Under the pieces are notes generated by a model, which was not told the origin of the DNA, did no database searches, and saw nothing but the letters and a program-made list of their open reading frames with translations. The position numbers and the translations under genes were made by a program. Shown here piece after piece: positions 3,198 to 29,146 of a stretch of 64,000 nt of DNA (position 1 is the stretch's first letter; the number at the start of each line of letters is the position of its first letter). The DNA lies in contig JAFWDK010000012.1 in the NCBI GenBank assembly GCA_017513085.1, forward strand, positions 8,310 to 72,309, given 5' to 3'. The DNA is from Clostridiales bacterium. GTDB taxonomy: Bacteria; Bacillota; Clostridia; Saccharofermentanales; Saccharofermentanaceae.

Positions 3198-3234
3198 TCT
3201 TGCATATTGTTCCAGCGTATAGATTAATTCATTC

Positions 3235-3272
3235 AAGAAGGCGGTTCCGAGATACAAGGGAACGGCCTTCTT
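3235..3272 (+). terminator. Probable intrinsic terminator
   Basis: AAGAAGGCGGTTCC...GGAACGGCCTTCTT hairpin followed by T residues. Confidence 0.6.
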
Positions 3273-3414
3273 TGGATTTGACATATTATCGTTCTGTAAA
3301 CTTTCACGAAGAAAAGGCCAAATTCGCTACTATTCTGATATTCTATGTTTAACGAAAAGAAAGCCTTGAGCAGGCTCTCTTAATCTTGATTGTATGTGGG
3401 AGGGGAATGAATAT

Positions 3415-6096: not shown

Positions 6097-6118
6097 TCAC
6101 AAACTAAGTATTATCTTT

Positions 6119-6175
6119 ATGAGGCCATCTGCACTACATAAGTGTGGGTGGCCTTTTTAACAGAAAGTTAACAAA
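6119..6175 (+). terminator. Intrinsic terminator, copy A of a duplicated 57-bp intergenic element
   Basis: GGCCATCTGCACT..AGTGTGGGTGGCC followed by TTTTT; 52/57 identical to 9505-9561. Confidence 0.8.
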
Positions 6176-6214
6176 TAAATCTGTAACTGCCCCAAACGGC
6201 GGATTCTCCTAGGA

Positions 6215-6273
6215 AAATCGCTGCTATTCTACGAGTAGCAGATTAAGATAGCCCTTAACAGGACTATCTTAAT
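6215..6273 (+). promoter_or_regulatory. Extended -10-like motif (TGcTATTCT) within a small palindrome, followed by a long hairpin
   Basis: CTGCTATTC-TAC-GAGTAGCAG then ATTAAGATAGCCCT-TAAC-AGGACTATCTTAAT. Related motifs at about 3321, 9596 and 11646. Confidence 0.5.
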
Positions 6274-6302
6274 TCAATCTTGTGAAATGGGGTGTTACGA
6301 GA

Positions 6303-9300: not shown

Positions 9301-9482
9301 ATGTAAGAAGATTGTACACAACGTTCATGGATAGAAATGCCGATGAGGGTGAGGTCACATACTGGGCAAGCAAGATCCGCAATAATGAGATGAGCAGACT
9401 TGCTGTGCTTCAGTTCTTTGGCCAAAGCGAAGAGTTTACAAATATCTGCGCGAAGTACGGTATCGATCGTGGAACGATCTGA
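6303..9482 (+). CDS. Secreted surface protein: putative CHAP/NlpC-like N-terminal domain, Ig/PKD/FN3-like domains, PTK linker, DUF4214-type C-terminus
   Basis: Signal peptide; 'NCWKFV..QPGDVIQM..HTLMI' Cys/His pattern; beta-rich domains; PTKAPTKV repeats at about 8483-8733; C-terminus YGIDRGTI. Confidence 0.8.
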   Translation: MKWVKNFLRGAFAVALSLCILLGVAYKTNVNAVAVSDIQALLSTKMTENGFKPGQSLSESNCWKFVNSLCSYLYKHGLPSQMPSKYEFYRTSNRFHTGWEDNYIQVGNTLTIADGTLNSTSLTNLLLQSQPGDVIQMNYNRDSGDDFHTLMIYSISNTGAIFYHAGSIVYFGGNGFWGTKGTEIPWATVWSMFGQSNDGISIYRSKRVTGGQTPSNDPPTISVSGFNAPTNLNVGQSFGLYGTATCSPGVISQVEAKVLNSSIGITVYPGSSAFNVRSSYSGGNVNNAIAFNKLSAGSYTLYYKITAQNGNKTTVKELSYPFTVGSVTPSTPEISSITASKTATLSGDTVTINWTTKNAGSVWLHVWKDGQPEYFSEGQGSNTSRAITLNGAGVYEVKLTPYSGQGYTGTEGSYASVLIYVYNAITDPWITADKTNVVVGETVTFSFGANNAQLYCLGFDKEGVGRIWTPDCGTQTTFATAFDSPGTYTVYASCYIPDVQSVDTSKVTINVSPDFSMILSCGDSVEYGEPFTVNWTPVQGAVRYRVEFYCKTRSKNGFIVYYDYETTKTSYSLNAHLAGGLAYDFFSQDFYEDYSVGIYSVDSNEKSSFCGNLPLRITAPYVETPQMSVQSVSNQSFILKWNAVVDAEAYVLYFRLPSEEKTRSAYHSKDTTLEINQEMALKQYGKELIPGETYCVRIATFKKVEGEEGRSSARFRSDMSEELMITIPTATPTPTKAPTKVPSKAPTKAPTKAPTKVPTKKPVTPTPTKKATPTPTKKVTPTKTPTKTPTKMPTKVPTKVPTQKPTPTKAPVFSDFVERLYTCALNRASEPGGKKFWTDEVTSGRRTGGDCARYFLLEAPEFMNRNLSVEDFVETLYKTFFDRKSDVAGKKGWVDAIKSGAMSRAVVVENFIESTEWCNICAKYSVKSGAKYHKATVASPNSISFATRLYTCCLKRSADADGVKYWSLALTNLEQTGCSAANFFFTGPEFTALKTSPEEYVRRLYTTFMDRNADEGEVTYWASKIRNNEMSRLAVLQFFGQSEEFTNICAKYGIDRGTI

Positions 9483-12443: not shown

Positions 12444-12730
12444 GGGGGATGAGTATGTTGAAACAAGGATAATGTATTCCACAAGATTGGAGGGATAACT
12501 TATTGTAGAAAAAACAGGTCTAACGTTTAGATAAGTAAAATCAAGAAGGTGGAACCGAGATTTATTGAATGCAAAAATGTAGTACGTTATCGTTAATTCT
12601 GAACTATCAAAAAAGAAATTACAAAATGTAAACGATTATTAAATTCTTTTGCTTAGCTATTTAGATAAATTGAGTTTTGGCTATACTATGTTTAGAGGTT
12701 ACATTTTTTTGTGATTGGAAATGTAAAAAG

Positions 12731-15394
12731 ATGATTGATGTATTGTGGGCAAAAAAAGATGGCAAGCACTGGCTATCGTTAAAGTCTCATCTATTGGATA
12801 CTGCGGAAACCATGGATTATTTATGGAATAATTGGGTATCACAAGACTTAAGAGATAGACTTTGTAATGCATTTAGGCAGAATTTGTCCGTAGATGAATG
12901 TGGCAGATTCTTGAGATTTCTTGCGCTTGCTCATGATGTCGGAAAAGCGACTCCCATTTTTCAGTCAAAGATATTGCAAGGAAAGAATGATGCAGATGCT
13001 GTCATTCTAAAAAGATTCATTAAGAAAGAAATACCACTTAAGGAACATTTCTTAAGAGATCTCTATCATGCTCAGGCTGGATACAACCTTCTTATTGAAG
13101 CGGGATGTAATTTGAACGCAGCTTCAATCGTTGGTTCGCATCATGGAATGCCATCTCAAAAGCAACCATCAAATGATAATCAAGAAGCATATTATTTGGA
13201 GAGCGAAGGTAAGTGTGTGTGGTCCAAACTGCAAAAAGACATCTTATCCTGGGTTTTGCAGCAGTCTGGTTATGCTTCGTTTGAAAGTGTTCCAGTACCA
13301 GCGTTCAATTCCCAGGTTTGGATGACGGGCCTTCTTATTATGGCAGACTGGATTGCAAGTAATAGCGCTTTTTTTCCAATGATTGCAGTAGATAGTCTAG
13401 TCACTGGAAATAATACGCATCGGCTGAATTCTTCTGATCTGGTTTTCCTACGAGGGGGCTTTTTTGAATCCATGAGGCAAAGTAACCTTGCTCTTCCAGA
13501 AGTTTTCAGGCATAGGTTTTCATTTTATCCCAACACGGTTCAACTTGAAACATGTGGTATAGCGAATAGTATGTCGGATTCCGGTATCATAGTTCTGGAA
13601 GCTCAGATGGGAAAAGGAAAGACTGAAGCTGCGCTTGCGGCAGGTGAAATTCTAGCGTCGAAATTCGACAAAAAGGGTTTATTCTTCGCGTTGCCTTCTC
13701 AGGCTACTTCGGATGGTATGTTTGTAAGAGTAAAAGAGTTTCTTGAAAGCGAAAACTACAAAGGAAGCATAAATCTTGTTCATGCTAAAGCCGCATACAA
13801 CAGAGAATATAATGAGATTCCTCACATTAATTCCGTTTGGGATGAACAAGACGACCTATCTCTTGGAATAGGAGAGTGGTTTGAAGGGAAAAAACAATCC
13901 CTATTATCGAATTTCGTAGTTGGCACTGTTGATCAACTTCTTATGGCAGGTTTACAACAAAAACATGTTATGTTGAGGCACTTGGGATTAGCAGACAAAA
14001 TCGTTATTGTGGATGAAGTTCATGCTTATGATGCATACATGTCTGTGTATCTTAAAAAGGCGTTATCCTGGCTAGGTGCATATCATGTACCGGTTATTCT
14101 TCTGTCAGCTACGCTTCCACACAAAAAGAAAATGGAACTTATTACTGCGTATGTTGGAAAAGAACGCAGTAAGAATATTGAAATACCTCCCTATTCTGGA
14201 GAGTATCCTGTACTTACTTATTATGATGATCTGAAAATTCAGTCAAAGCCTATAGCAAATACAGATTTGACTAGATCTGTTGATGTCGATTATTCTTCTT
14301 CAGATATTATTGGCTTAGCTGAAATCATAGAAAAGACCTTGGATCGATCTGATGGTTGTGTAGGCGTTATTCTTAATACTGTCAAGAATGCACAGAAGCT
14401 TTACATGATGCTAAAAAAACAGTTTTCAGATGATGAGATAATACTAATTCATTCAGGTTTCCTTGCAAACGATAGGGTAGCGATAGAAGAAAAAATCAGA
14501 AAGACTTTGGGTCGCTCAGGAATGGCCACCAGACCACAAAAGTTCATTGTAATCGGAACGCAAGTTCTTGAACAGTCATTAGATATTGATTTTGATTGGC
14601 TTATAACAGAACAGTGCCCCATAGACCTTTTGCTGCAGAGAATAGGAAGGCTTCATAGGCATGGTAGAGAGAGACCTGAGATCTTCAGTCAAGCAAAATG
14701 TCTTGTCGTTATGCTTTCTGACCAGGAAAGAGATGCGTCAGAATTGATATATGGACGTTATCTTCTGCGAAGAACTAGAGCGGTTATTGAAGCTAAATCA
14801 ATGCGGATTCGAATACCGGACGATTTATCCCAACTGGTAGAAGATGTGTATGATTGTGAAGACTTGTCAGATGCAGATTATTCTAATTGGGTTAGATCAA
14901 TACAGAACAAAGATTACGAGGCAAAGCAATTCTGTATAGCTGACCCGGTGGATAGATTTGATCGAAAATTTCTTCGAAATATGGATTACTTGCTTGACAA
15001 CAGAAAACTGTGTGTAACTACAGAGGGCGAGGCAAGAGTACGTGATACTAATGGCTCAATAGAGGTTGTGATTTTTCAAATGAAACATGGAAGGATTTAT
15101 CATGTCTCCGGAGATAAAGAAGTATGCTCTGATAAGGAACTGGCATGTGAGACCGTCCGATTACCTTACTCTCTTTCTGGACCGCATATGATACAGGAGA
15201 CGGTGAAAGCACTGGAGAACCTTCGAAACGATACATTGTCAGATGATTTAAGAAACAGTGTATGGCTTAAGGATACGCTATTTTTAGCATTTAACGAGAA
15301 TCAGAAAACTAAACTTGAAGTTGGAAAAAAGGTATATAGCATCAAATATGACAATATGACAGGAATTCATGTAGAGAAGGAGGAAAATACGTGA
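12731..15394 (+). CDS. cas3: CRISPR-associated helicase/nuclease Cas3 (type I-E)
   Basis: LWAK..HLLD, HD motif 'AHDVGKATP', 'HHG', 'ADWIAS', Walker A-like 'AQMGKGKTE', 'DEVH', 'SATLP', 'QRIGRLHRH'. Confidence 0.97.
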   Translation: MIDVLWAKKDGKHWLSLKSHLLDTAETMDYLWNNWVSQDLRDRLCNAFRQNLSVDECGRFLRFLALAHDVGKATPIFQSKILQGKNDADAVILKRFIKKEIPLKEHFLRDLYHAQAGYNLLIEAGCNLNAASIVGSHHGMPSQKQPSNDNQEAYYLESEGKCVWSKLQKDILSWVLQQSGYASFESVPVPAFNSQVWMTGLLIMADWIASNSAFFPMIAVDSLVTGNNTHRLNSSDLVFLRGGFFESMRQSNLALPEVFRHRFSFYPNTVQLETCGIANSMSDSGIIVLEAQMGKGKTEAALAAGEILASKFDKKGLFFALPSQATSDGMFVRVKEFLESENYKGSINLVHAKAAYNREYNEIPHINSVWDEQDDLSLGIGEWFEGKKQSLLSNFVVGTVDQLLMAGLQQKHVMLRHLGLADKIVIVDEVHAYDAYMSVYLKKALSWLGAYHVPVILLSATLPHKKKMELITAYVGKERSKNIEIPPYSGEYPVLTYYDDLKIQSKPIANTDLTRSVDVDYSSSDIIGLAEIIEKTLDRSDGCVGVILNTVKNAQKLYMMLKKQFSDDEIILIHSGFLANDRVAIEEKIRKTLGRSGMATRPQKFIVIGTQVLEQSLDIDFDWLITEQCPIDLLLQRIGRLHRHGRERPEIFSQAKCLVVMLSDQERDASELIYGRYLLRRTRAVIEAKSMRIRIPDDLSQLVEDVYDCEDLSDADYSNWVRSIQNKDYEAKQFCIADPVDRFDRKFLRNMDYLLDNRKLCVTTEGEARVRDTNGSIEVVIFQMKHGRIYHVSGDKEVCSDKELACETVRLPYSLSGPHMIQETVKALENLRNDTLSDDLRNSVWLKDTLFLAFNENQKTKLEVGKKVYSIKYDNMTGIHVEKEENT

Positions 15395-17028
15395 AATCAG
15401 AATATAATTTGCTTGATGAGCGATGGATTATAGTTACTCGACTTGATGGAAATCTAGAAAAAGTCTCTTTGCTTGAACTTTTTCAAAATGCCCACATCTA
15501 TAAATCTTTTGATGGTGAATGTGAGACACAGAATATTTCCATCATTCGGTTGTGCTTGGCAGTCTTGACAACTGTGATTTCTAGGTTTGATTTGGAAGGA
15601 AAGAATAATCCCATTGAAGATGATATTGATGCTACAACCAGATGGGGAGAATGGTGGAATAGAAAGTCATTTCCAATTCGAATCATATCAGAGTATCTCG
15701 AACAATATCGATTTAGGTTTTACCTTTTTGATGAACAATATCCTTTTTACCAAGATGCTTCAGTCGGGCAGGAACTGGCAATGGAATATAAAAAGGTAAC
15801 AGGAAAGAAAAGAATCGCGGATGTGAGCACAGGGTATTACCCTTTGACAAAACTAATAGGGAATCTATCCGAAAGTGCAAACAAAAAGCGTTTGTTCAAA
15901 GCTGCTGATAAGAATAGTATCGAATTTGACGAAGCCGCACGATGGCTGATCAATTATATGAACACCGCGGATAAACCAGAAAAAAAGCCAACACCGAAAA
16001 ACTGCGGAATAATTGGAGAAATGGGCTGCGTTTATTGTCAAGGCAAAAGCATCTTTGAGACGCTTATGCTAAACCTGATTCCTGGCGCAGATGGTTCATA
16101 TGTGGAGAAACCGGAATGGGAAAAAACATCACCTACAGGAAATAATGAAGAGATTTTTCCGTCTTCAAAATCAGAATTATATACATTTCAAATCAGAAGA
16201 CTGTTCCTTGACAGGAGAGAGAATCTGATTGTTGGTTTCAAATCTAAAGCTGGTATGTGTTACAATAGCCTGCCACTTTGGGAACCTATGACTATGTGGA
16301 GGATTCAAAGCAAGAATAGTATAGAAGAAATACGTCCTAAGCATCATGACCCTTCAGTAGTAATGTGGAGAAATCTATCATTATTGTTGGCTTCTACAAA
16401 CGATTCTCGTAAACCAGAGGTTATAAGGTGGATTGAAACTCTTGAGAATCAGGACATATTTGATAGTAATTATTCGCTATCTATTAAGACTGCAGGTATT
16501 GAATATGGAAGTATGTCGTCGTCCATCTCCAACACATTTTACGATTCCCTCAGTTTTTCTGCTGTAATTATTAGAGAACAGGAAAAAAACGAGCAGAGTA
16601 ATATTTTAAAAATCCTGGAATTGACCAATGATGTTGCGGACAGATTCGCATATTTCTGTGGGGTTTTGTATGTTGCTCAAGGTGGAGACAAGGAAGGTGA
16701 AAGCGGTGTAAGAAGAAAATCAAAAAGCCGGATGTATTCAGCGCTGGACCTTCCGTTCAGGCGATGGCTTCTCAAAGTCGGAACAGAATATATAACAGCG
16801 GGGCAGATAGAAAACAGCTGGTGGGAAATCATACAACGTATCTCCTTACATCTGGCCGACGAGGAGATAAGAAAAATGCCTGTGGAAGCAATGATTGGCA
16901 AGATGATTTGGGATGAAAAGAAAAAGAAAAATATGATTTACAGTGGAGCAAAGGCATTAGAAGATTTCCACTATGAGATTTCGAAACCAGATAGAGTGAA
17001 GGAGGTCAAAAATGGGAAGAAGAAGTGA
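15391..17028 (+). CDS. cas8e: Cascade large subunit Cas8e (CasA/Cse1)
   Basis: 'YNLLDERWI', 'RFYLFDEQYPFYQ', 'FETLMLNL', 'EPMTMW'; position after cas3. Confidence 0.92.
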   Translation: MKSEYNLLDERWIIVTRLDGNLEKVSLLELFQNAHIYKSFDGECETQNISIIRLCLAVLTTVISRFDLEGKNNPIEDDIDATTRWGEWWNRKSFPIRIISEYLEQYRFRFYLFDEQYPFYQDASVGQELAMEYKKVTGKKRIADVSTGYYPLTKLIGNLSESANKKRLFKAADKNSIEFDEAARWLINYMNTADKPEKKPTPKNCGIIGEMGCVYCQGKSIFETLMLNLIPGADGSYVEKPEWEKTSPTGNNEEIFPSSKSELYTFQIRRLFLDRRENLIVGFKSKAGMCYNSLPLWEPMTMWRIQSKNSIEEIRPKHHDPSVVMWRNLSLLLASTNDSRKPEVIRWIETLENQDIFDSNYSLSIKTAGIEYGSMSSSISNTFYDSLSFSAVIIREQEKNEQSNILKILELTNDVADRFAYFCGVLYVAQGGDKEGESGVRRKSKSRMYSALDLPFRRWLLKVGTEYITAGQIENSWWEIIQRISLHLADEEIRKMPVEAMIGKMIWDEKKKKNMIYSGAKALEDFHYEISKPDRVKEVKNGKKK

Positions 17029-17584
17029 TGCTTCGGCATTCGTTAATCGGAAGATTAGTTTGCTGAAAACAAGACCATCTTCTGAAGTTTCAGCTGCACT
17101 GGCAGAACTTCGGAGAGGCGCAGGAAAGGAGCCCGGATCAAATCCACTACTGTGGGAATGGACACTAGAAGGGTTACCCGATGAAGGATTTGGTGCAGAG
17201 CCATCGTATCTTGAAACATCAGTATATCTGGCGATGACATTGTTTTCTGTTCATCAACAAGGAAACGATGTTCAAACAAAGTGTATGAGCGTATCAAGTG
17301 TTCGTTTCGGCGAAGCTGTCAGAAGACTCTGTAAAAATGAGGATGATATTGACAGGATGATTAAGAAAATCAAGGCTGTGACATCTGCTGATTCGATTAC
17401 ATCGGTAGCATATTATCTTCGTCAATTGATTTCGCTTCTTAAATCGAATGGAATCGGATTTGATTATGCTGATTTAGCTGGAGATCTTTATGATTTTCAG
17501 TTTGAAGAAGGTCGTGATCGAATTGTGTTGAAATGGGCAAGAGATTTCTACAAAACTAAAAAGATTATATCTGAGGAGGAATAA
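17012..17584 (+). CDS. cas11: Cascade small subunit Cas11 (CasB/Cse2)
   Basis: 'ALAELRRGAGKEPG', 'LFSVHQQG', 'DYADLAGDL', 'WARDFY'. Confidence 0.93.
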   Translation: MGRRSDASAFVNRKISLLKTRPSSEVSAALAELRRGAGKEPGSNPLLWEWTLEGLPDEGFGAEPSYLETSVYLAMTLFSVHQQGNDVQTKCMSVSSVRFGEAVRRLCKNEDDIDRMIKKIKAVTSADSITSVAYYLRQLISLLKSNGIGFDYADLAGDLYDFQFEEGRDRIVLKWARDFYKTKKIISEEE

Positions 17585-17586
17585 TT

Positions 17587-18642
17587 ATGAAAGAAGAAAG
17601 AATTTATGTTGATGTTCATGTATTGCAAACAGTTCCGCCGAGCTGTGTGAATCGTGATGATACCGGAAGTCCCAAAACAGCTATTTACGGTGGAGTTCGA
17701 AGAGCTCGGATTTCTTCCCAGTCATGGAAACATGCAGTCAGATGTTATTTCAGAGATCATCTTGATGAGCAGAAACTTGCTTATAGAACTAAAAATGCGG
17801 ATGCTAAGGTTGCTGATTATCTTGTTCAATATGGGATGAGTCAGGAAGAGGCGAAAAAGTCAGCTGTCAAGGCACTTAAAGATGCGAAGATTATAGCTTC
17901 GGAAGATGGAAAAAAGAACGCATTATTCTTTATTAGTGACGCTCAAGCAAGAGCGGTTGCTTCAGCAATTAATTCTGGTGCTGATAACGAAGAGATTAAA
18001 AAGGCTCTCTCTGAAACTCCTGGCATAGAAATAGCCCTCTTTGGTCGAATGGTAGCTGATAATACGGCACTTGGAGAAGACGCTTGTTGCCAAGTTGCTC
18101 ATGCTATATCAACTCATAAAGTATCTAATGAGTATGATTACTTTACAGCAGTTGATGACATACAAGATGATGATGCTTCCGGAGCGGGTCATATTGGTTC
18201 GAATGAGTTTAATTCTGCAACTTTATATCGATATGCTACTGTTGCTGTCCATGATCTTGCAAATAGTCTTGGAACGGATACTGCTCAGAGCGTCTGTGAT
18301 TTCTTGGAGGCTTTTGTTAAGTCGATGCCAACGGGAAAGATGAATTCGTACGCTAATAGAACTATTCCTGATGCAGTACTGGTTACGATTCGAAATGATC
18401 AGCCTGTGAATTTTGTCGGTGCATTTGAAGAAGCGGTTAACCCTGATAAGCAGTGCGGAGGATATGTTTCTGGTTCTGAAAAGAAACTTGAGATGTATGT
18501 TCTTGAAAGCTATAAGGACTTTATAGATTCTCCTTTGAAATCTTTTGTTGTTGGTAATCTTGATGACTCGTTGGGAGAAAAGGTGTCTTTCGGAGATTTG
18601 TTGCTCAAGGTAAAGGACGTGCTCGTGGAGAATCTCTCATAA
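17587..18642 (+). CDS. cas7: Cascade backbone Cas7 (CasC/Cse4)
   Basis: 'VPPSCVNRDDTGSPKT..GGVRRARISSQSWK', 'IALFGRMVA', 'DYFTAVDD'. Confidence 0.96.
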   Translation: MKEERIYVDVHVLQTVPPSCVNRDDTGSPKTAIYGGVRRARISSQSWKHAVRCYFRDHLDEQKLAYRTKNADAKVADYLVQYGMSQEEAKKSAVKALKDAKIIASEDGKKNALFFISDAQARAVASAINSGADNEEIKKALSETPGIEIALFGRMVADNTALGEDACCQVAHAISTHKVSNEYDYFTAVDDIQDDDASGAGHIGSNEFNSATLYRYATVAVHDLANSLGTDTAQSVCDFLEAFVKSMPTGKMNSYANRTIPDAVLVTIRNDQPVNFVGAFEEAVNPDKQCGGYVSGSEKKLEMYVLESYKDFIDSPLKSFVVGNLDDSLGEKVSFGDLLLKVKDVLVENLS

Positions 18643-18657
18643 TGTGGAGGAAGTATT

Positions 18658-19371
18658 ATGTCTACGTTATTGATTAGGCTTGAAGGTCCTATGCAATCCT
18701 GGGGGGATGAGTCTGCCTTTGGTGAAAGAAGGACTATGAGAGAACCGACGAAGAGCGGAATCATCGGCCTGGTAGCATCCTCACTGGGATATAGAAGAGA
18801 TGATGAAAGGCTGAAGACACTTTTATCTCTGAGATTTGGAGTCAGGATTGACAGAGAGGGTGTGAACGTATCTGAGTATGATTACCAGATCTCGAGGGTT
18901 GCATGTAAAAACCGTGGCCATTATGTAAGCCTCAAGTATGGTGAGTATGAAACGGAGCCTTCTCAATCAGTTCTCTCAAAACGATACTATCTCTTCGATG
19001 CATCCTTCTTATGTGGTCTGGAAGGAGATGAGAGAATGCTCAAGGACATTGCACATGCTCTTTGCCATCCAATGTGGCCGCTGTTTTTGGGGAGACGGTC
19101 TTGCCCGCCGGCAAAACCGATTTATGTTGCTATAAGAGATGGTTCGTTGGAGGATGCACTTAGGACTGAATCTTTGGCCCAAAGATCTGAACTTCGAATC
19201 AGATATTGCATTGAACCGATTGATGCAGATAGCAGGGCATTTGAGCAAAAAGATCTGCCTCTTTCGTTTGATAAGCGGAAGAGAATCTATAGCAAGAGAA
19301 AAGTCATAGAAGGTTATTGGGATTACGTGGATTCTTGCGAGTCAGAACAAGATCCTCTCGCCATACTGTAA
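18658..19371 (+). CDS. cas5: Cascade subunit Cas5e (CasD)
   Basis: 'LEGPMQSWG', 'PTKSGIIGL', 'LFLGRRSCPP'. Confidence 0.96.
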   Translation: MSTLLIRLEGPMQSWGDESAFGERRTMREPTKSGIIGLVASSLGYRRDDERLKTLLSLRFGVRIDREGVNVSEYDYQISRVACKNRGHYVSLKYGEYETEPSQSVLSKRYYLFDASFLCGLEGDERMLKDIAHALCHPMWPLFLGRRSCPPAKPIYVAIRDGSLEDALRTESLAQRSELRIRYCIEPIDADSRAFEQKDLPLSFDKRKRIYSKRKVIEGYWDYVDSCESEQDPLAIL

Positions 19372-19381
19372 GGGGAAAAAT

Positions 19382-20005
19382 ATGTATTATTTATCTAGGA
19401 TCATTCTTGATGATACAAATAGAAAGGTGATGGAAGGATTTGCTAGACCATCACTTTTCCATGGAGCCGTAGAAAGAAGCATAGACGGTCCGCGAAAACG
19501 AAACATATGGAGAATTGACAGGTTCAAAGGCAAATCCTGTCTGCTATTGGTAACGTCTGAAAAACCGGATTTGAGTTCAATTCAGAAAGAGTTTGGATAT
19601 GAAAATGTGCAGCCGGAGATTAAAGAATATGATGCTTTTCTCCAGAAACTATCATGCGGACAGATATGGAGGTTCAGAATTAAGTTGAACCCGGTTGTGA
19701 ATCGTGATTCTAAGAGGATCCCTATTAAATCGTCTCAAATGAAAGACTGGTTTATGGGAAAAGTGGAATCATACGGATTCACAGTCAATTCAGATGGTTT
19801 TGATATAGTTGACTTGCGAGATTATGATTTCCATAAGAATGGCGAATCATATCTTAAAAAGGAACCAAAAGTAAGATTTAAAACCGTAACGTTCGAAGGT
19901 ATTCTGACTATAACGGACTCCGAAAAAATCAAGAGTGCCTTGGTCACCGGCATTGGAAAAGAAAAAGCTTTCGGATGCGGTTTGCTCACACTTGCGGGTT
20001 TGTAA
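19382..20005 (+). CDS. cas6e: crRNA endoribonuclease Cas6e (CasE/Cse3)
   Basis: 'YLSRI', 'FRIKLNP', Gly-rich C-terminal 'GIGKEKAFGCGLLTL'. Confidence 0.95.
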   Translation: MYYLSRIILDDTNRKVMEGFARPSLFHGAVERSIDGPRKRNIWRIDRFKGKSCLLLVTSEKPDLSSIQKEFGYENVQPEIKEYDAFLQKLSCGQIWRFRIKLNPVVNRDSKRIPIKSSQMKDWFMGKVESYGFTVNSDGFDIVDLRDYDFHKNGESYLKKEPKVRFKTVTFEGILTITDSEKIKSALVTGIGKEKAFGCGLLTLAGL

Positions 20006-20006
20006 T

Positions 20007-20951
20007 ATGGATACATATAATACAAAACCAGAATTGCAATCCTTAGTTCCTGTAAATGACAGGATGAGTTTTTTGTATGTTGAAAAATGTAATGTCAATC
20101 GTGAGTCTGGTGCTATATCATTTACGAATAAAGAAGGGCAGATCAATGTTCCAGCTTCATCCATTTCTGTTCTGTTACTAGGCCCTGGATGTGACATATC
20201 ACATAGAGCTTTGGAGCTTATAGCTGATTCAGGAACATCTGTTGTGTGGGTGGGGGAGCATGGTGTCAGATATTACTGCCATGGTCGACCTTTAACCCGG
20301 ACCTCTTCGTTGCTTATAAAACAGGCTACTATGGTCTCGAATGAAAGAAAGCGACTTGATGTTGCTCGTAAAATGTACGCAATGAGATTCCCAGGGGAGG
20401 ATATTTCCAAGATGACATTAGCCCAGTTGAGAGGCAGAGAAGGCGCACGGGTTAGGAGAGTTTACAGAGAATTTGCTCATAAGTTTGGTGTTCCCTGGAA
20501 TGGACGCGAATATGATCCAGAGGACTTTAACAATTCTAATGAGATTAACAAAGCTCTTTCTGCCGCCAACATCTGTTTATATGGTCTAGCGCATAGTGTA
20601 ATTGCGGCACTAGGACTATCTCCGGGCTTGGGCTTTATTCACACTGGCCATGAAAGATCATTTGTCTATGATCTTGCTGATTTATATAAGGCAGAAATAT
20701 CTATTCCAATTTCATTCCAAACGGTAGCGGAGACCCCGTCTGATATTGAATCTGCAGTTAGACACAAAATGAGAGACTGCTTTTATTCAACAAAAGTTTT
20801 GAGACGGATGGTTGCGGACATATATACTATTTTATCGGAGAATGAAGAAGAAACTAGTGTAGAGGTGGATGTGTTGAAATTATGGGATAACAAACAGGGT
20901 GAGGTTGATTCCGGGAAGCAGTATTCCTGTGATGAAGAAGATATAAAATGA
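20007..20951 (+). CDS. cas1: Cas1 integrase (type I-E)
   Basis: 'DRMSFLYVE', 'LLGPG', 'LRGREGARVR', 'LGFIHTG..SFVYDLADLYK'. Confidence 0.97.
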   Translation: MDTYNTKPELQSLVPVNDRMSFLYVEKCNVNRESGAISFTNKEGQINVPASSISVLLLGPGCDISHRALELIADSGTSVVWVGEHGVRYYCHGRPLTRTSSLLIKQATMVSNERKRLDVARKMYAMRFPGEDISKMTLAQLRGREGARVRRVYREFAHKFGVPWNGREYDPEDFNNSNEINKALSAANICLYGLAHSVIAALGLSPGLGFIHTGHERSFVYDLADLYKAEISIPISFQTVAETPSDIESAVRHKMRDCFYSTKVLRRMVADIYTILSENEEETSVEVDVLKLWDNKQGEVDSGKQYSCDEEDIK

Positions 20952-21799
20952 TTGTATTATCTCTGTCAAAATGTTCTGCTTCTTTGAGAGGTGATTTGAC
21001 CAAATGGTTGATGGAAATAGATACTGGAGTCTATGTTGGACGAGTTTCTGCTCGAGTCAGAGATCATTTATGGAAGAAGGTTGAAAACAATATAGGAGAA
21101 GGTCGTGCTATTCTCGTGTTCAGCGCACAGAACGAGCAAGGCTTTGATATAAAGACAATTAATTCAGAAAGATATCCTATTGATTGTGACGGACTTAAGT
21201 TAATGATGATACCTGCTAAGGAACCTCTCAAAGAAAGGAAGATTCATCAAACGAGAATCAAGAAAGCAAGTAGTAACCCAACAACGAAGTATCCAGCAAA
21301 TTCCTATGTGGTGCTTGACATAGAAACAACAGGCCTTGATAAAACAAGCGATAGAATCATCGAGTTTGCTTGCTTATCTGTAAGCAGAGATGAGATTACT
21401 AAAGAGTTGCATGGATTTATAAAACATGAGCAACCTCTTTCCGATATGATAGTCAATTTAACAGGAATTACAGATGAAATGATTAATGGAGGAATGGATG
21501 AAAAAAGAGCATTAACAGATATATTAGACTTTATAGGACAAGAGTCTATTGTTATTCACAATGCCGAGTTTGACATTGGTTTTTTAAATGCAGCTTTACT
21601 TAGACACAACATGCCTCTCCTTTCAAATGTGTGTGTAGATACGCTAAAAATGGCAAGAAGGAGAGTTAAGGATGTAGAAAACTATAAGCTTGACACCCTA
21701 ATTAAGCGTTTCTCATTAACTGCTCGGAAAAAACATAGAGCGTTAAGTGATTGTCATATAACATATGAGTTGTACAAAAGATTAATTGAAATCGTATAA
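20948..21799 (+). CDS. cas2: Cas2 fused to a DnaQ-like DEDDh 3'-5' exonuclease
   Basis: N-terminal I-E Cas2 ('LRGDLTKW..EIDTGVYVGRVSARVRD.LW'). C-terminal 'VLDIETTG', 'HNAEFD' and 'HRALSD' give intact DEDDh residues. Confidence 0.95.
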   Translation: MIVLSLSKCSASLRGDLTKWLMEIDTGVYVGRVSARVRDHLWKKVENNIGEGRAILVFSAQNEQGFDIKTINSERYPIDCDGLKLMMIPAKEPLKERKIHQTRIKKASSNPTTKYPANSYVVLDIETTGLDKTSDRIIEFACLSVSRDEITKELHGFIKHEQPLSDMIVNLTGITDEMINGGMDEKRALTDILDFIGQESIVIHNAEFDIGFLNAALLRHNMPLLSNVCVDTLKMARRRVKDVENYKLDTLIKRFSLTARKKHRALSDCHITYELYKRLIEIV

Positions 21800-21850
21800 A
21801 AACGAACCTTGACAATTAAATATTCCCCATTTTTATGGTATTATTCAAGT
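21800..21850 (+). promoter_or_regulatory. Short CRISPR leader with extended -10
   Basis: 51 bp, AT-rich; TGgTATTAT at 21836-21844 lies 6 bp before repeat 1; TTGACA at 21809. Confidence 0.6.
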
Positions 21851-23403
<1,553 letters not shown>

Positions 23404-23795
23404 TGACCTTTGGAGATGAACAGCTGTTTCCTGCGAGAAAAACGTAGTTTGAAACATTTTGAATGACACATATAAGCCATGACTGCACAAGCTCATTCAA
23501 AACGACAAATCTCTTATATTGTTACCATGGATCTTGTGAAAAAGCCTGCAGAAGCAATGTATGCCTTGCTAAACAATAGTTATAGTTCGCATTACAATTT
23601 TCGTATCTAAGTTTGCAAAAAATCAGGAACTTGTTTATGACAGAAGCGGGATAGACGAGACATTGATTACTGCAGAATGGACGTGAGAAAGATTGAATAT
23701 AATATATGAATATCCATGGTATTTGCTTAGGTTGCACATATATCCCTGAATAGTTAGAATTAGTATTAGAAATACAATTCTGCTGGGGGATGCAT

Positions 23796-25688
23796 ATGCT
23801 TGTCTATTCTGGAATCAAAACGGATTTTATGCGTGATGTAGATGACGGTGTTCTTGCGGGGAAAATCAAGCAGACTATCCTTGAGAAGATGGGGAGAAGG
23901 ACGCCGGATAGTGAGTTCCGTTCTTGGGAGAATTCCATGAAGGATATGTTTATTGTGATGAGTGATTCTCAGATCCCTGAAGATTCCGGTGTGGCGATTG
24001 AATATAACATTCCGCAGACGGCGAAGCGTGTGGACTTTATTATATCCGGTTATGACAAAGACAACCGTCCTTCCATTGTGGTGATTGAACTCAAGCAGTG
24101 GGAGATGCTCAAGGCTATTGCAGGGATGGATGCTTTGGTAGAGACATATACGGGTGGAGCAAATAGAAGAGTGGTACACCCGTCTTATCAGGCCTGGTCA
24201 TATGCGCAGCTGATCAAAGACTATAACTCTACAGTCCAGGATAAAGAGATTCAGATCTGGCCTTGCGCATATTTGCATAACTATGCACGTAAAGAAGACG
24301 ATCCAATCGATAGTGAGTGGTACGATGAGTACCAGAAAGAAGCCCCTGCATTTACAAAAGGTCAGAACGCTAAGCTGCGTGAGTATATCAAGAAAAGCAT
24401 TGTAAAAGGCGACAGCAAAGAAGTTCTTTACTATCTTGAGAATGGAAAGATACGTCCTTCCAAGAGCCTGCAGGATTCCATCGGAAAGATGTTGAAAGGT
24501 AATCCTGAGTTCATCATGATCGATGAACAGAAAGTGGTATACGAAGAAGTAGTTCGGCTATCAGAGCTTTGCCAGAAAGATAATAAGAAAAGGACGATTA
24601 TCTGTCAGGGCGGCCCGGGAACCGGAAAGACGGTTATTGCTGTAAATCTTCTTGCAGAACTGACGCAAAGAGGACAGATGGTCCAGTATGTATCTAAGAA
24701 TGCTGCGCCTCGTCAAGTCTATCTTCGAAAGTTGAAGGGGACTTATTCAAAGAGTAGCGTCAATAATATGTTCAAAGGTTCCGGCCAGTATTTTGAGGCG
24801 CCTGAAAACTTTGCGGGGACACTGTTGGTGGATGAGGCACACCGATTAAATGAGAAATCCGGAATCTACCATAACAACGGAGAGAATCAGATAAAAGAAC
24901 TGATCCATTCCTGTCTGTGTAGTGTTTTCTTTATTGACGAAGATCAGCGTGTGACGATGGATGATATCGGCAGCATTGACCAGATAAAACGATGGGCAAG
25001 AGAGGCGGATTCTCAGGTATATGAGATGGAGCTGGTTTCTCAGTTCCGTTGCAATGGTTCGAATGGTTATATGGCATGGCTGGACGATGTTCTTCAGATC
25101 CGTGAAACGGCAAATCCGGATCTGGATGGATTGGATTTTGATATCCGCATCTGTGATACTCCGGGTGAAGTGCGTGATCTGATTTTTGAGAAGAACAGAA
25201 GCACAAACCGCGCGCGTATCCTTGCGGGTTATTGCTGGAATTGGAATAAGAAAGAAGCAAACAACACGGATTATCATGACATAAAGATCGGAGACTTCGA
25301 AATGAGTTGGAATCTTGACGGCGGAGAACCTTTTGCTGTATCGGATACGTCTGTGAATGAGATCGGATGCATTCATACATCACAGGGCCTGGAGTTTGAT
25401 TATGTCGGCGTAATAATCGGCGAGGATATCCGCTATGAGGATGGTAAAGTCATTACCGACTTCTCGAAACGCGCTCAAACTGATCAGTCACTTCGAGGAA
25501 TCAAGAAACTGAATAAGGAAAATCCTGAAGAAGCACGGGAGCGTGCAGATCAGATTATCCGGAATACATACCGAACACTTCTGACACGCGGAATGAAAGG
25601 TTGCTATATCTACTGTGTGGACTCGGAGTTGGAACGGTATCTGAAAGAAAGAATAAACGCATATAACTCGAAGAAGGTGAATACATGA
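23796..25688 (+). CDS. DUF2075 (Schlafen group 3-like) helicase with N-terminal PD-(D/E)XK-like nuclease
   Basis: 'EYNIP..KRVDFII..VIELKQW', 'HPSYQA', Walker A GGPGTGKT, 'LVDEAHRL', 'QFRCNG', 'HTSQGLEFDYVGV', 'YRTLLTRG'. Confidence 0.88.
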   Translation: MLVYSGIKTDFMRDVDDGVLAGKIKQTILEKMGRRTPDSEFRSWENSMKDMFIVMSDSQIPEDSGVAIEYNIPQTAKRVDFIISGYDKDNRPSIVVIELKQWEMLKAIAGMDALVETYTGGANRRVVHPSYQAWSYAQLIKDYNSTVQDKEIQIWPCAYLHNYARKEDDPIDSEWYDEYQKEAPAFTKGQNAKLREYIKKSIVKGDSKEVLYYLENGKIRPSKSLQDSIGKMLKGNPEFIMIDEQKVVYEEVVRLSELCQKDNKKRTIICQGGPGTGKTVIAVNLLAELTQRGQMVQYVSKNAAPRQVYLRKLKGTYSKSSVNNMFKGSGQYFEAPENFAGTLLVDEAHRLNEKSGIYHNNGENQIKELIHSCLCSVFFIDEDQRVTMDDIGSIDQIKRWAREADSQVYEMELVSQFRCNGSNGYMAWLDDVLQIRETANPDLDGLDFDIRICDTPGEVRDLIFEKNRSTNRARILAGYCWNWNKKEANNTDYHDIKIGDFEMSWNLDGGEPFAVSDTSVNEIGCIHTSQGLEFDYVGVIIGEDIRYEDGKVITDFSKRAQTDQSLRGIKKLNKENPEEARERADQIIRNTYRTLLTRGMKGCYIYCVDSELERYLKERINAYNSKKVNT

Positions 25689-26005
25689 ATGATCAGACGA
25701 TAGCAAGGATTAGAAAGTTTAAAGAAGAACGGGATTGGGATAAGTTTCATACTCCGGCAAATCTCGCGAAATCCATATCCATCGAAGCAAATGAACTACT
25801 CGAGTGCTTTCAGTGGAGCGATACGGAATACAATCTCCAGCATGTGAAAGAAGAACTGGCGGATGTGCTTGTTTATTGCCGAGACTTGCTCGATAAACTC
25901 GGACTGGACGAAGACGAAATCGTCAATATGAAGATGGATCAGAATGAAGCGAAGTATCCGGCTGACAAGGCTAGAGGAAATAGTACAAAGTATGACGAGC
26001 TGTGA
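25685..26005 (+). CDS. MazG-like nucleotide pyrophosphohydrolase (dCTPase-like)
   Basis: 'ERDWDKFHTPANLAKSISIEANELLECFQW..EELADV..KYP'; ATGA overlap with the upstream gene. Confidence 0.92.
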   Translation: MNDQTIARIRKFKEERDWDKFHTPANLAKSISIEANELLECFQWSDTEYNLQHVKEELADVLVYCRDLLDKLGLDEDEIVNMKMDQNEAKYPADKARGNSTKYDEL

Positions 26006-26250
26006 ATGGTGAATCTCAGCTTAGTTGGTGAGAATAAGTGAAAACTATATAGTGCATGCTTTGGGGGAGTAAATGCGTCGTAGAGTTGAAATAGGTGTAA
26101 ATGATTTAGCGACATGGTGTAAAACACATAACACCTAATTGATGAGTTGGATTCAGCTAACGAATTTCAAAAAGGGAAGCAGTTCAATGAAATGACATAT
26201 TATCAGTTCTAGCCATGCTTTTTCAAAATGCATGGTTTCAGGGAGAATAC

Positions 26251-27231
26251 ATGAGATTTGAAATTACAACATCATATGGAAAAGGAAATATTCAGGCTAT
26301 TGCTATAAGTAAGAAATTAAACGATTTGCAGATTTCTGAGGGAGAAAATGTTGTTTTTGATTTTCAAAAGTATAAAGAAAAGAATCCGTTTAGCAATCTC
26401 TTGTTAATCAATTCGATTAGACGATTTCGCAAAAGATTTCCTGAGTCTGAGATGAGGTGCTCATATGTTGAGGATGGAGGGTATTTATCTCACATTGGAT
26501 TTTTTAAGAAATTGGGGCTGAATATCGGAAATGAACCAGGAGCAGCTCATGCAAATTCGAGGTATGTTCCTATAACTGATATTATATTAGAAAACGACTT
26601 TTATGGGAGTATTGAAGATATTGCTAAGCGACTAACGAATACACTCCAATTTGATGATGATCTTCAAGAAACATCTGAGTATGTTCTGATTGAGACGATT
26701 CGCAATGTATTTGAACATGCTGGCGTGAAAGAGGTTTCAGTTGCCGCGCAGAAATGGCCGACAAAGAATCTTGTGGAAATTGCAATTATGGACACAGGTT
26801 GTGGAATAGTTGGCAGTATGGGGAAAAAGTATTCTCTTAACGAGGTTGAACTGTTGAAGTATGCTTGTAAGCCTGGTATTACAACAGGATCGAATTTTAC
26901 ATATTTAGATCTGGATGATCCATGGAGGAATTCAGGGTATGGGTTATACATGTTAAAAGAGTTAACACTCGAATACAATGGATCGTTTATTATCTGTAGT
27001 GGAGATAAGGCTGTTAGATACAGAAAGAAAGACAAACAAATAGAAGAAAAGGTTTTTTCTGCTGGCTGCGAAGGTACGATTATCTGTTTGCGGTTTTCTA
27101 CAGAACAACAACCTTCTTTCTCGGAGGTCCGAAAGAGAATCCTAAAGAGTGGCGAAGACGAAGCGAAGAGAATTGCAGGTGCGATTCAAAAGGCGTCAAG
27201 GTCTTCGGGAGGAAGATATATTATTTCTTGA
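26251..27231 (+). CDS. Stand-alone GHKL/HATPase_c ATP-binding protein with STAS-like N-terminus
   Basis: N box 'ETIRNVFEHAG', G1 'DTGCGI', G2 'NSGYGLY', 'GT'; no H-box or TM segment; N-terminal 'VVFDF..YLSHIGFFK'. Confidence 0.7.
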   Translation: MRFEITTSYGKGNIQAIAISKKLNDLQISEGENVVFDFQKYKEKNPFSNLLLINSIRRFRKRFPESEMRCSYVEDGGYLSHIGFFKKLGLNIGNEPGAAHANSRYVPITDIILENDFYGSIEDIAKRLTNTLQFDDDLQETSEYVLIETIRNVFEHAGVKEVSVAAQKWPTKNLVEIAIMDTGCGIVGSMGKKYSLNEVELLKYACKPGITTGSNFTYLDLDDPWRNSGYGLYMLKELTLEYNGSFIICSGDKAVRYRKKDKQIEEKVFSAGCEGTIICLRFSTEQQPSFSEVRKRILKSGEDEAKRIAGAIQKASRSSGGRYIIS

Positions 27232-27386
27232 TGAAATAATGTTGGATAAAGATGCTGTGGATTTTGGCTCGCTGATTGTTAATCAAAGCTGGTAATGATT
27301 CAAGTGAGATACAGCTCGTTCTGTACAGACATATGGTGTTTGTATGGGCTCAAACAATAAAATCTAGGATTGGTAGGTTATAGAAG

Positions 27387-27755
27387 ATGGACACAAATCA
27401 AGCGATACAGATCATACACGACAACTACAAGTGTGAGGGAAACAGCTTCATATACTATCTCCATGAGAAAAGTACTTTTGACACGGAAGGGTTCTGGGCG
27501 TTCTATGATAGTGTTGTGGCGTTGGTGGAGCGTGAGGAGTTGAAGACTGCGGAGTTGACCAGGGAGATCACGGGTGTCTACCAGTTGATACTGAAGTATT
27601 TTGTGTTCCATTTTGATCCGGCGGACGGGTATGTGATCGCGGGGTTCCCGAAGGAGTATATCGGGTACATTGAGAGGGTCGAGTATGCTTTGATGGCGTA
27701 CTATAGTGGGAATATGAGGCTTGTGATAGAGGACGACTTTGAGTTGGAGAGGTAA
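27387..27755 (+). CDS. Putative Imm41-like immunity protein
   Basis: 'NSFIYYLHE..FD..FW..HFDPAD.Y.I..P..YIERV' resembles polymorphic-toxin immunity family Imm41 (from memory). Confidence 0.55.
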   Translation: MDTNQAIQIIHDNYKCEGNSFIYYLHEKSTFDTEGFWAFYDSVVALVEREELKTAELTREITGVYQLILKYFVFHFDPADGYVIAGFPKEYIGYIERVEYALMAYYSGNMRLVIEDDFELER

Positions 27756-27758
27756 CGC

Positions 27759-28325
27759 ATGAACGAGGTTTTGGTGGATGAGGCGATTGGGTTCATCCGG
27801 GGATTGTTTGCAAACAGGAGTGATGGGCATGATGTGGAGCATTCGTTGAGGGTGTACCGGAATGCGAAGAAGATCGCTTCGTGTGAGTGTGGTTTTGATG
27901 AAGAGGTCGTGGTGTTGGCGGCGTTGCTTCATGATGTGGACGATAGTAAGCTTTTTGAGACGAAGGACAATGCGAATGCCAGAGGTTTTCTGAATTCCGT
28001 GGGGATTTCGGCAGGGAAAATCGATAAGATCTGTGCGGTGATTAATTCCGTTTCTTTTTCGCATAACAGGGGGAGACGGCCGGATTCTGTTGAAGGGAAG
28101 ATCGTGCAGGATGCGGACCGACTTGATGCGATGGGGGCGATTGGGATCGCGAGGACGTATGCCTATGGGGGAAGCCATGGGCGGTCACTGGAGATGTCGA
28201 GGCAGCATTTTTACGATAAACTGTTGCTTTTGAAGGATGAGATGAATACGGAAAAGGGAAGGGAGCTGGCGCAGAGACGGCATGCTTTTCTGGAAGCTTT
28301 TCTGAATGAATTGGAGAATGAATGA
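27759..28325 (+). CDS. HD-domain phosphohydrolase (YedJ/YpgQ-like)
   Basis: 'GHDVEHSLRV', 'LLHDVDD', 'VQDADRLDAMGAIGIAR', 'HFYDKLL'. Confidence 0.9.
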   Translation: MNEVLVDEAIGFIRGLFANRSDGHDVEHSLRVYRNAKKIASCECGFDEEVVVLAALLHDVDDSKLFETKDNANARGFLNSVGISAGKIDKICAVINSVSFSHNRGRRPDSVEGKIVQDADRLDAMGAIGIARTYAYGGSHGRSLEMSRQHFYDKLLLLKDEMNTEKGRELAQRRHAFLEAFLNELENE

Positions 28326-28338
28326 GAGGAAAATATAC

Positions 28339-28851
28339 ATGAAAGTTATAAAAACGATTTTCGACGATTGTCTGGTCGTTGAACCGACGCAAAGAAACGA
28401 CGAAAGATGCGATATGGCGCTTCTGTATAGTCATGAGGGAGAGATGAAAGAGATCTTTCACGGATTTACGCTGACGGAGCAGCGCTTCTATCGGATGAGG
28501 AAGCATGCGTTTTTTGGGATCCATAAGGGGCCGCCGAGACTGGTCTGCATTATTGCGGGGAAGGGTCTGGATTATGTGGTCGATCTGAGGAAGGATTCGC
28601 CTACATATAAGCAGTACCAGACGATCGAACTGAGTGGTGATGCGCCGAAGATCGTCTTCATTCCTTCGGGGTTCGGTCATGCTTTTCTTTCTCTTGCAGA
28701 AGGTACGATCGAGGCTTTCGGCATGGATCTGGATGCGCCGTTTGAGAGGAGCGGGCCGGTCAACTATAAGTCTCCGGGAATCGACTTGAAACTTCCTGTT
28801 TCAGATGTGATCCTGGCGGACTATGACAGGGATGCGGCTATGTTAGAATAA
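28339..28851 (+). CDS. RmlC-like dTDP-sugar epimerase family (cupin) protein
   Basis: 'GIH', 'DYVVDLRKDSPTY', 'FIPSGFGHAF'. Confidence 0.75.
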   Translation: MKVIKTIFDDCLVVEPTQRNDERCDMALLYSHEGEMKEIFHGFTLTEQRFYRMRKHAFFGIHKGPPRLVCIIAGKGLDYVVDLRKDSPTYKQYQTIELSGDAPKIVFIPSGFGHAFLSLAEGTIEAFGMDLDAPFERSGPVNYKSPGIDLKLPVSDVILADYDRDAAMLE

Positions 28852-28870
28852 AATCGAGACTGTAAAAGAA

Positions 28871-29146
28871 ATGGAGAAAGTGCTTTTTGCCGTGGATGAA
28901 TTGACCGGACTGATCGGTGCCGCTGCGCTGATGCGGCCGTCGAAGAGCACGAAGGATATGGAGTTGAAGTCTTTGAAGAAAAAGTATAAGAGCAAAGGCT
29001 TCGCGGCGGGATGTTCTCGGGAAGTGATCGAGCGTGGTGCAGAGCAATTAGGGTGGGAGCTCGATAAGCTTCTGACGATGACGATTGCGGCGATGGCTGC
29101 GACGGAAGATGAGATCAACAGTAAGATGGAAAATCTAGATATTTAG
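28871..29146 (+). pseudogene. C-terminal fragment of an HD-superfamily hydrolase (COG2316-like)
   Basis: 'KVLFAVDELTGLI..RPSKS..LKKKYKSKGFAAGCSRE' is the C-terminal half; the N-terminal HD motif is absent. Confidence 0.6.

Follow-up and report, generated by a model that had tools for sequence, protein, structure and literature searches.

What does a nuclease-helicase gain from a small nucleotide pyrophosphohydrolase whose gene overlaps its own? The question is raised by two genes at positions 23796 to 26005 of the window, i.e. the whole 64,000-nt stretch (46% GC) analysed here, which comes from contig C7 of the 3.06-Mb, 36-contig genome of a Clostridiales bacterium. The closest named relatives of this host are rumen and gut Clostridia, for instance Mageeibacillus and Saccharofermentans. 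Gene 1 encodes a PD-(D/E)XK nuclease joined to a DUF2075 (Schlafen-group-3) helicase and gene 2 a MazG-like pyrophosphatase, and together they form a conserved, mobile two-gene module. With a probability of about one half, we consider the pair a horizontally mobile module directed against mobile genetic elements, in which the nuclease-helicase would be the effector and the pyrophosphatase an accessory sanitiser of C5-modified dCTP-like nucleotides. It is probably an antiviral module rather than a new kind of system. The parts of the locus are as follows (aa, amino acids; SF1B, superfamily 1B).

23796..25688, plus strand: gene 1, nuclease-helicase; open reading frame (ORF) of 630 aa, extended to 632 aa by an in-frame ATG at 23790
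23796..24575, plus strand: N-terminal PD-(D/E)XK nuclease domain and helical linker, residues 3-262 (invariant motif, domain model)
24591..25622, plus strand: DUF2075/Schlafen-group-3 SF1B helicase-ATPase domain, residues 268-611 (PF09848)
25685..25688, plus strand: ATGA overlap, start of gene 2 over the stop of gene 1 (read from the sequence)
25685..26005, plus strand: gene 2, MazG-like all-alpha dNTP pyrophosphohydrolase of the DCTPP1/RS21-C6 type, 106 aa (PF12643)

The start at 23796 aligns with the conserved M-x-VY N-terminus of 72 homologues, two database entries of 630 aa each are identical to the product from this position, and a GGGGGA stretch lies approx. 6 nt 5′ of it; it is therefore preferred over the ATG at 23790. 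Gene 1 begins approx. 390 bp past the last repeat of a CRISPR array with a 61-nt period (21851 to approx. 23404), and its stop codon is overlapped by the start of gene 2 at 25685-25688, in line with the first-pass annotation, which had described an ATGA-coupled pair about 400 bp past the array. It is this overlap that suggests co-transcription of the two genes; promoter and terminator scans of the locus returned nothing above shuffled expectation, and an Rfam search of 21000-29000 gave no match.

The helicase assignment of gene 1 is based on PF09848 (SLFN-g3_helicase, formerly DUF2075), which matches residues 268-611 with an E-value of 5e-100 (335.6 bits against a cut-off of 24) over positions 2-354 of its 354. 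Motif conservation was scored in an alignment of 65 diverse relatives sharing 28-65% identity. Residues G277, G279 and K280 of the Walker A motif and D348 and E349 of Walker B are invariant, as are Q418, R420, Q532 and R600. In the AlphaFold2 model of the protein (mean predicted local distance difference test score, pLDDT, 92.4), the helicase part resembles DSH9, RecD, SLFN11, RecD2, Dna2, Ighmbp2, Upf1 and Dda in Foldseek comparison with the PDB (E-values from 3e-11 to 1e-6), and SLFN14 is also among the structural matches of the C-terminal two thirds. Walker motifs combined with a RecA-like two-domain fold akin to RecD, Dda and Upf1 place it among the SF1B helicases. The nuclease tetrad E71, D82, E100 and K102, which includes the motifs R80-V-D82 and I99-E-L-K102, is likewise invariant in the 65 relatives. 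When folded alone (pLDDT 89.4), the N-terminal 260 residues were matched by VIA-align to VC1899 (Z 8.0, root-mean-square deviation 3.1, 131 residues aligned), Can2 (Z 7.3 and 7.2), Cdn1 (7.0), Card1 (6.4), NucC (5.9), McrC (5.6) and NucS (5.6), with Upx and many Type II enzymes within 5-6, and Foldseek returned weak matches only (best E 7e-3). As these Z values are middling, most weight is carried by the invariant motif; its E...D...E-x-K residues, together with the restriction-endonuclease-like alpha/beta core, identify a PD-(D/E)XK nuclease.

The family to which gene 1 belongs comprises 4630 clusters (50% identity) at E≤1e-3 and 793 at E≤1e-30, and 543 relatives were found in a search of genome contigs. 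A PDB sequence search gave no entry at E≤0.01, and a PHROGs search no family. To our knowledge, no member has been characterised experimentally. Twelve of 15 long relatives (740-1068 aa) carry a C-terminal Peptidase_S24 domain of the LexA/UmuD type, including one that is up to 60% identical across the whole nuclease-helicase (P0123). In contrast to these long forms, the window protein is a short form that ends at residue 632 without this domain. Among the close relatives of gene 1 (P0123, P0125 and others), a fusion to a PIF1-like helicase occurs in one and N-terminal Sel1 repeats in another.

Gene 2 matches the MazG-like family PF12643 (E 8e-17, 61.7 bits against a cut-off of 27), and 49 partner sequences all share its acidic metal-binding residues E34, E37, E56, E57 and D60. 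In the PDB, it is related by sequence to the pyrophosphatase 4qgp (1e-19) and to mouse DCTPP1/RS21-C6 (1e-15); in PHROGs, it matches phrog_3301, annotated as 'pyrophosphatase', at 3.8e-13. The DCTPP1 pocket residues as listed in PMC13291643 were placed by hand on an alignment of gene 2 with DCTPP1. Eight of the ten are identical, namely F12, W18, F21, H22, W44, D60, Y64 and Y91, corresponding to Phe41, Trp47, Phe50, His51, Trp73, Asp98, Tyr102 and Tyr129 of DCTPP1. V63 replaces Ile101, a conservative exchange, and I9 stands at the differing position of His38. The tryptophan facing C5 of the base is kept. As judged from this alignment, the pocket is DCTPP1-like, sharing the tryptophan sandwich, His51 and the Tyr, Phe and Asp residues, although DCTPP1 is a mammalian protein of 170 aa whereas the gene 2 product is prokaryotic, 106 aa long, operon-coupled to a nuclease-helicase and has Ile at the His38 position. 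DCTPP1 is reported to keep methylated dCTP out of DNA (PMC13291643). The domain calls of the first-pass annotation hold for both proteins: the PD-(D/E)XK nuclease (RVD..IELK) and Schlafen-group-3-like helicase in gene 1, given the invariant tetrad and the PF09848 match, and the intact MazG motifs in gene 2, given the five invariant acidic residues.

How regularly the two genes occur together was determined in the best 80 loci of the 543 gene 1 relatives. A MazG homologue directly adjoins the gene 1 homologue in 48 of them, 32 times downstream, 14 times upstream, once between two DUF2075 genes and once as a split gene; in one further locus it lies 5.5 kb away. By ORF calls from the first start codon, the spacing ranges from a 44-nt overlap to a distance of 83 nt. 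That adjacency is kept in both gene orders speaks for function rather than inherited synteny. The same picture was obtained from the other side in 100 genomes of the bacterium's own family, where a DUF2075 gene directly adjoins 18 of the 23 MazG-like places and five of these partners are only 26-35% identical to gene 1; one of the remaining places is ambiguous because of contig ends, and four are non-adjacent, two of them fragments. Across 44 linked pairs, the protein distances of the two genes are correlated (Mantel r 0.62, reached by 0 of 999 permutations). No fusion of MazG with the helicase was found among 18 relatives checked, 15 of which are the long forms.

The remaining 31 loci have no MazG gene. 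In seven of these, fewer than 330 nt of downstream flank are available, leaving 24 loci that have room for the gene and truly lack it. Nuclease and ATPase residues are kept in all 27 MazG-less homologues sampled, three of which are rows from cut contigs. Absence of MazG from the 24 loci and integrity of gene 1 there show that MazG is an optional accessory. An alternative conserved partner in these loci was ruled out, as the 40 of their flanking ORFs that were scanned are heterogeneous. Presence or position of MazG has changed at least 19 times on a gene 1 tree of 73 rows, and partners have been exchanged in four loci (L034, L054, L077 and L080). In the MazG tree, which has only 111 columns, weak resolution and rows from different sampling frames, stand-alone housekeeping copies branch outside, and the linked copies constitute inner clades with three nested orphans. 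We read the linked MazG proteins as a putative branch, dedicated to DUF2075 genes, of an enzyme family with a general house-cleaning role.

Mobility of the pair is evident from its distribution. Within the genus, 8 of 23 other genomes carry gene 1; in a second genus the count is 13 of 58, and a search of 18 genomes from six more genera of the family did not detect it. In total, 22 of the 100 family genomes match it. At 51-87% identity, relatives were found in Lachnospiraceae, Erysipelotrichaceae, Negativicutes, Spirochaetota, Bacteroidota, Balneolota, Methanobrevibacter and Methanocorpusculum. Archaeal relatives are 51-63% and relatives in other bacterial phyla 48-68% identical. Linkage of the two genes itself spans Bacillota, Bacteroidota, Balneolota and methanogens. 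A gene 1 relative resides on 93 plasmid records, and a 22-kb database entry filed under the name of a Microcystis phage contains the pair. On a Priestia plasmid, DUF3578, a pyrophosphohydrolase and DUF2075 are encoded in one operon amid restriction-modification (RM) genes and a MutT gene; we take this DUF3578 to be a McrB-N-like domain binding 5-methylcytosine. In the window, the pair has a GC content of 44%, compared with 38-42% for the cas operon and approx. 50% for the housekeeping genes downstream. The flank DNA downstream of the pair is scattered among the 23 relatives in the genus, so that no clean empty site was found.

The neighbourhood of 16 pair loci was scanned with PADLOC (150 of the 259 flanking ORFs listed for 30 loci, no background control). 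A match at E≤1e-10 was obtained in the flanks of 12 loci, in two of which it was only the methyltransferase-like 'mad2'. Named systems occur in five of the 16 flanks: AbiE in L058, SauUSI-like Type IV restriction in L031, L055 and L076, and type II RM with Vsr and IetAS in L034. Thus, of the earlier suggestion that the pair belongs to a cluster of defence genes, the frequent proximity of restriction, Type IV, Abi and further defence genes is retained; enrichment is not demonstrated by 16 loci without a background. The proposal that the pair acts as a backup to Cascade found no support. Upstream of the array, the window encodes a type I-E CRISPR-Cas operon (12677-21799, Cas3 through a Cas2-DnaQ fusion), and the type I-E genes cas3, cse1, cas7 and cas1 were found in none of the 80 related loci. 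Adjacency to CRISPR is therefore local, and on the evidence of these 80 loci a conserved CRISPR-Cas link of the pair was rejected. In nine of the 80 loci (L007, L010, L012, L013, L017, L018, L027, L030 and L031), the pair is adjoined by a protein of approx. 330-405 aa with a C-terminal HNH_4 domain, and a 200-aa gene product resembling S-adenosylmethionine-dependent methyltransferases is encoded in six (L010, L012, L013, L016, L027 and L055). Together, these two may represent additional, third and fourth components in part of the Lachnospiraceae; the window contains neither.

The architecture of gene 1 has precedents among defence proteins. Nhi from Staphylococcus epidermidis (SERP2475; Bari et al., 10.1101/776245) and AbiO combine, like gene 1, an N-terminal PD-(D/E)XK domain with an SF1B helicase overlapping DUF2075 in one protein. 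The Nhi-like system (Millman et al. 2022, 10.1101/2022.05.11.491447) is described as a predicted N-terminal nuclease followed by DUF2075, the order found in gene 1. With its N-terminal nuclease and DUF2075 in a single polypeptide, gene 1 thus has the Nhi/Nhi-like architecture. The anti-phage role of Nhi and of Nhi-like is proven, and Nhi is described as single-component (10.1101/776245), whereas a MazG gene is coupled to gene 1. Moreover, gene 1 is not a member of the Nhi (PADLOC PDLC02372) or AbiO families: their models match with E-values of 8.2e-12 and 2.6e-13 and only in part (approx. positions 176-331 of models 468-470 long), covering residues approx. 240-422 of gene 1. Nor is it a member of PDC-S41 (PDLC05014), which matches at 6.7e-16 in two stretches, whereas a true member at L027:1674-3851 scores 9.7e-242 over positions 3-653 of 657; in BLASTP, gene 1 and this PDC-S41 protein share motif-level similarity only. 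Phages were found to escape from Nhi-like through loss of a phage DNA methylase (Stokar-Avihail et al., 10.1101/2022.08.27.505566). By analogy, this would fit a link of gene 1 to modified DNA.

A second precedent concerns the partner. Small NUDIX hydrolases of 128-139 aa (PADLOC PDC-S07; Pfam NUDIX, NUDIX_4) recur in related loci. In L031 and L055 they come immediately after SauUSI-like enzymes, and in L045 at a distance of approx. 0.8 kb from one. A small NUDIX gene likewise comes after the PDC-S41-type DUF2075 genes of L027 and L010, in parallel to MazG beside gene 1. L025 also belongs to the loci with such a gene after a SauUSI-like or PDC-S41-type gene. A second pyrophosphatase fold thus convergently occupies the position that MazG holds beside gene 1. 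SauUSI-like genes themselves adjoin the pair in L031 and L076, and in L055 such a gene is located approx. 3.9 kb upstream of it. A MutT/NUDIX pyrophosphohydrolase was reported to be linked to at least 60 SauUSI-like genes, its function being left for study (Xu et al. 2011, PMC3141236), and deletion showed that the nudix gene is dispensable for restriction by SauUSI (Monk et al. 2012, PMC3312211). SauUSI resembles the pair in being an ATP-dependent nuclease-helicase coupled to a small nucleotide pyrophosphohydrolase. It differs in its parts: SauUSI is composed of a phospholipase D-type (PLD) nuclease, a superfamily 2 helicase and a DUF3427 reader, gene 1 of PD-(D/E)XK and SF1B domains with no reader seen, and the partner folds are NUDIX in one case and all-alpha MazG in the other.

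The PADLOC scan proposed in the first-pass annotation did not reveal a model naming the pair. Neither PADLOC-DB v2.0.0 nor NCBIfam 20.0 lists it as a system; gene 2 matched only PDC-M24A at 7e-4 and gene 1 gave partial matches. Within the literature library searched, no paper treats DUF2075 together with MazG and none on the pair was found among the matches listed, the main text of the Millman et al. 2022 preprint contains neither 'pyrophosphatase' nor 'MazG', and the 2026 work on bacterial Schlafens concerns the RNase domain (PMC13056530). The novelty first attributed to the pair is accordingly reduced: the pair corresponds to no named system in these collections and no paper on it was found, but the Nhi/Nhi-like architecture is published and the link between SauUSI and a pyrophosphohydrolase dates from 2011.

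If the pair is a module against mobile elements, it could operate as follows. The product of gene 1 would be an ATP-driven nuclease-helicase that separates the strands of invading DNA, most likely that of phages, and cuts it, perhaps with a preference for modified DNA. Gene 2, made together with gene 1, would hydrolyse dCTP-like nucleotides to the monophosphate, the probable substrates being C5-modified ones such as 5-methyl- or 5-hydroxymethyl-dCTP, and its likely role would be sanitation of the nucleotide pool while restriction proceeds or afterwards. Modified nucleotides, either of phage origin or recovered by salvage when modified DNA is degraded, would be kept out of newly made DNA. As a consequence, the host chromosome would not be attacked, and the phage would lack the special building block it needs.

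Several observations weigh against this reading. Gene 1 contains no SRA, PUA, DUF3427 or MrcB_N reader domain according to Pfam and fold searches, so that a preference for modified DNA would be based on analogy and context. The missing His38 is one of the two cytosine-selecting histidines of DCTPP1, which makes the base specificity of gene 2 uncertain. PADLOC matches were absent from the flanks of 4 of the 16 pair loci (L002, L007, L014 and L077), and as the count of 12 was made with no background control, we do not claim enrichment in defence islands. Finally, a phylum-wide reverse test with the MazG profile on 200 other genomes of at least 90% completeness returned 14 MazG-like places in 13 genomes, only three of which have a PF09848 gene next to them. 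The remaining 11 are solitary, located by genes such as recJ, holA or degV or in a prophage beside a terminase gene. The MazG-like enzyme family as such is a general house-cleaner.

Whether MazG might be an effector in its own right, destroying canonical dCTP or a modified phage dNTP while the nuclease-helicase degrades DNA, was considered with these findings in mind. Intact and invariant catalytic residues, the DCTPP1-like pocket, the co-expression implied by the ATGA overlap and a related phage 'pyrophosphatase' family in PHROGs would all suit such co-equal effectors, and nucleotide-depleting defence enzymes such as dCTP deaminase and dGTPase are known (10.1101/2022.08.27.505566). We regard this as unlikely. 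The 24 loci with room for MazG do without it although gene 1 is intact there, close MazG relatives are found alone in housekeeping contexts, and the NUDIX partner of SauUSI is dispensable for restriction (PMC3312211). Besides, a constitutive enzyme of 106 aa without a sensor domain would drain the dCTP of its host unless it were specific for modified nucleotides. The co-equal, coupled effector envisaged in the first-pass annotation is weakened by the many intact relatives without MazG and gives way to an accessory; what stands of its system coupling dNTP removal with cleavage is the conserved mobile pair, whereas MazG-like homologues in the phylum occur mostly alone and in housekeeping contexts.

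Translational coupling would also suit a MazG protein that binds the nuclease-helicase and restrains or activates it, or that hydrolyses a nucleotide signal, with house-cleaning as a secondary activity. That the two proteins have diverged in a partly correlated manner (Mantel r 0.62) is compatible with such a regulator or antidote, and many nuclease-NTPase defence systems form complexes (10.1101/2025.07.10.664194). This is still less probable, as 27 of 27 sampled MazG-less homologues are intact, which would not be expected if MazG were an antidote, partners are swapped between lineages, and none of the 18 relatives checked is a fusion. Furthermore, an unrelated NUDIX fold in the same position beside other nuclease-helicases argues for shared chemistry rather than a shared binding surface. 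We consider it just as improbable that the pair serves repair or replication hygiene in variable regions, a damage-processing helicase-nuclease being combined with a dNTP sanitiser. MazG-like relatives do adjoin recJ, holA and similar genes, four of 16 loci have no PADLOC neighbour, genes near MazG-less homologues include those for dihydrofolate reductase, M20 peptidases and nitroreductases, and the LexA/UmuD-type S24 domain in 12 of 15 long forms ties the family to a DNA-damage signal. However, a function of this type does not account well for the patchy distribution (22 of 100 family genomes), relatives 51-63% identical in archaea and 48-68% in other bacterial phyla, carriage on plasmids and in a phage record, the recurrence of Type IV, RM, AbiE and IetAS genes nearby or the architecture common to Nhi and Nhi-like. 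In addition, the MazG-less gene 1 homologues of two genomes (G089 and G097) are broken by internal stops, and this breakage after loss of MazG suggests a dispensable gene.

Several further genes surround the pair or resemble its parts. Directly after the pair, 26215-27231 (plus strand, 36% GC) encodes a stand-alone GHKL (HATPase_c-like) ATP-binding protein of 338 aa with weak matches to HATPase_c (6e-4) and to the N-terminus of the DrmA model (1.6e-8). In the nearest relative (L002/G045), a DUF4062 protein fills its place, indicating a variable slot, and as a third component it was ruled out by its lack in 80 of 80 related loci. The next region, 27387-28325 (plus strand), contains a 122-aa ORF without family match and, 3 nt further, a gene for a 188-aa HD-domain phosphohydrolase that is PRK10119-like at 5e-24, below the cut-off. 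The 122-aa ORF is the sole downstream gene shared with the locus of the nearest relative, and within the genus only G045 keeps it beside the pair. On the other side, 20948-21799 (plus strand) encodes the type I-E Cas2 fused to a DnaQ-like 3′-5′ exonuclease (Cas_Cas2CT1978 and RNase_T); stand-alone DnaQ-like exonucleases are also found near the pair in L031, L058 and L061. Four large DUF4214-repeat proteins with leucine-rich repeat, Listeria-Bacteroides repeat or CAP domains are encoded at 17-9482 and 58854-61694 (plus strand) and appear to be exposed on the surface or secreted. Elsewhere in this genome, beyond the window, there is a second, N-terminally truncated MazG-like ORF of 86 aa (G000:C14:3933-6152, L082), sharing 84% identity with residues 33-106 of gene 2. 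The next gene downstream encodes a 569-aa protein ending in an HNH domain, and the ORF is preceded by a 213-aa helix-turn-helix/antitoxin-like gene and a DUF3990 gene; there is no DUF2075 gene at this place.

Returning to the preferred reading of an antiviral nuclease-helicase with an accessory sanitiser, we tentatively extend it to a general design constraint, although the extension is rather doubtful. Immune nucleases that hit modified DNA might face a salvage hazard, an 'autoimmunity by salvage', that is met by recruiting a sanitiser of the nucleotide pool. The sanitiser would stop modified dNTPs, made by the phage or set free from restricted DNA, from entering the host chromosome and turning the nuclease on its owner. 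Two pyrophosphatase folds that are unrelated, the all-alpha MazG/DCTPP1 type and the NUDIX type, would then have been adopted independently by no fewer than three unrelated nuclease-helicase families, namely the DUF2075 clade of gene 1, the DUF2075 clade of PDC-S41 and the SauUSI-type PLD-helicases. If this is true, the pyrophosphatase genes beside SauUSI, noted in 2011, and those beside Nhi-type nuclease-helicases would gain a common explanation, and a bacterial module would be tied to the role of human DCTPP1 against methylated dCTP in DNA. The nuclease-helicase family of gene 1 is large, with 793 clusters at E≤1e-30, and spans both bacteria and archaea.

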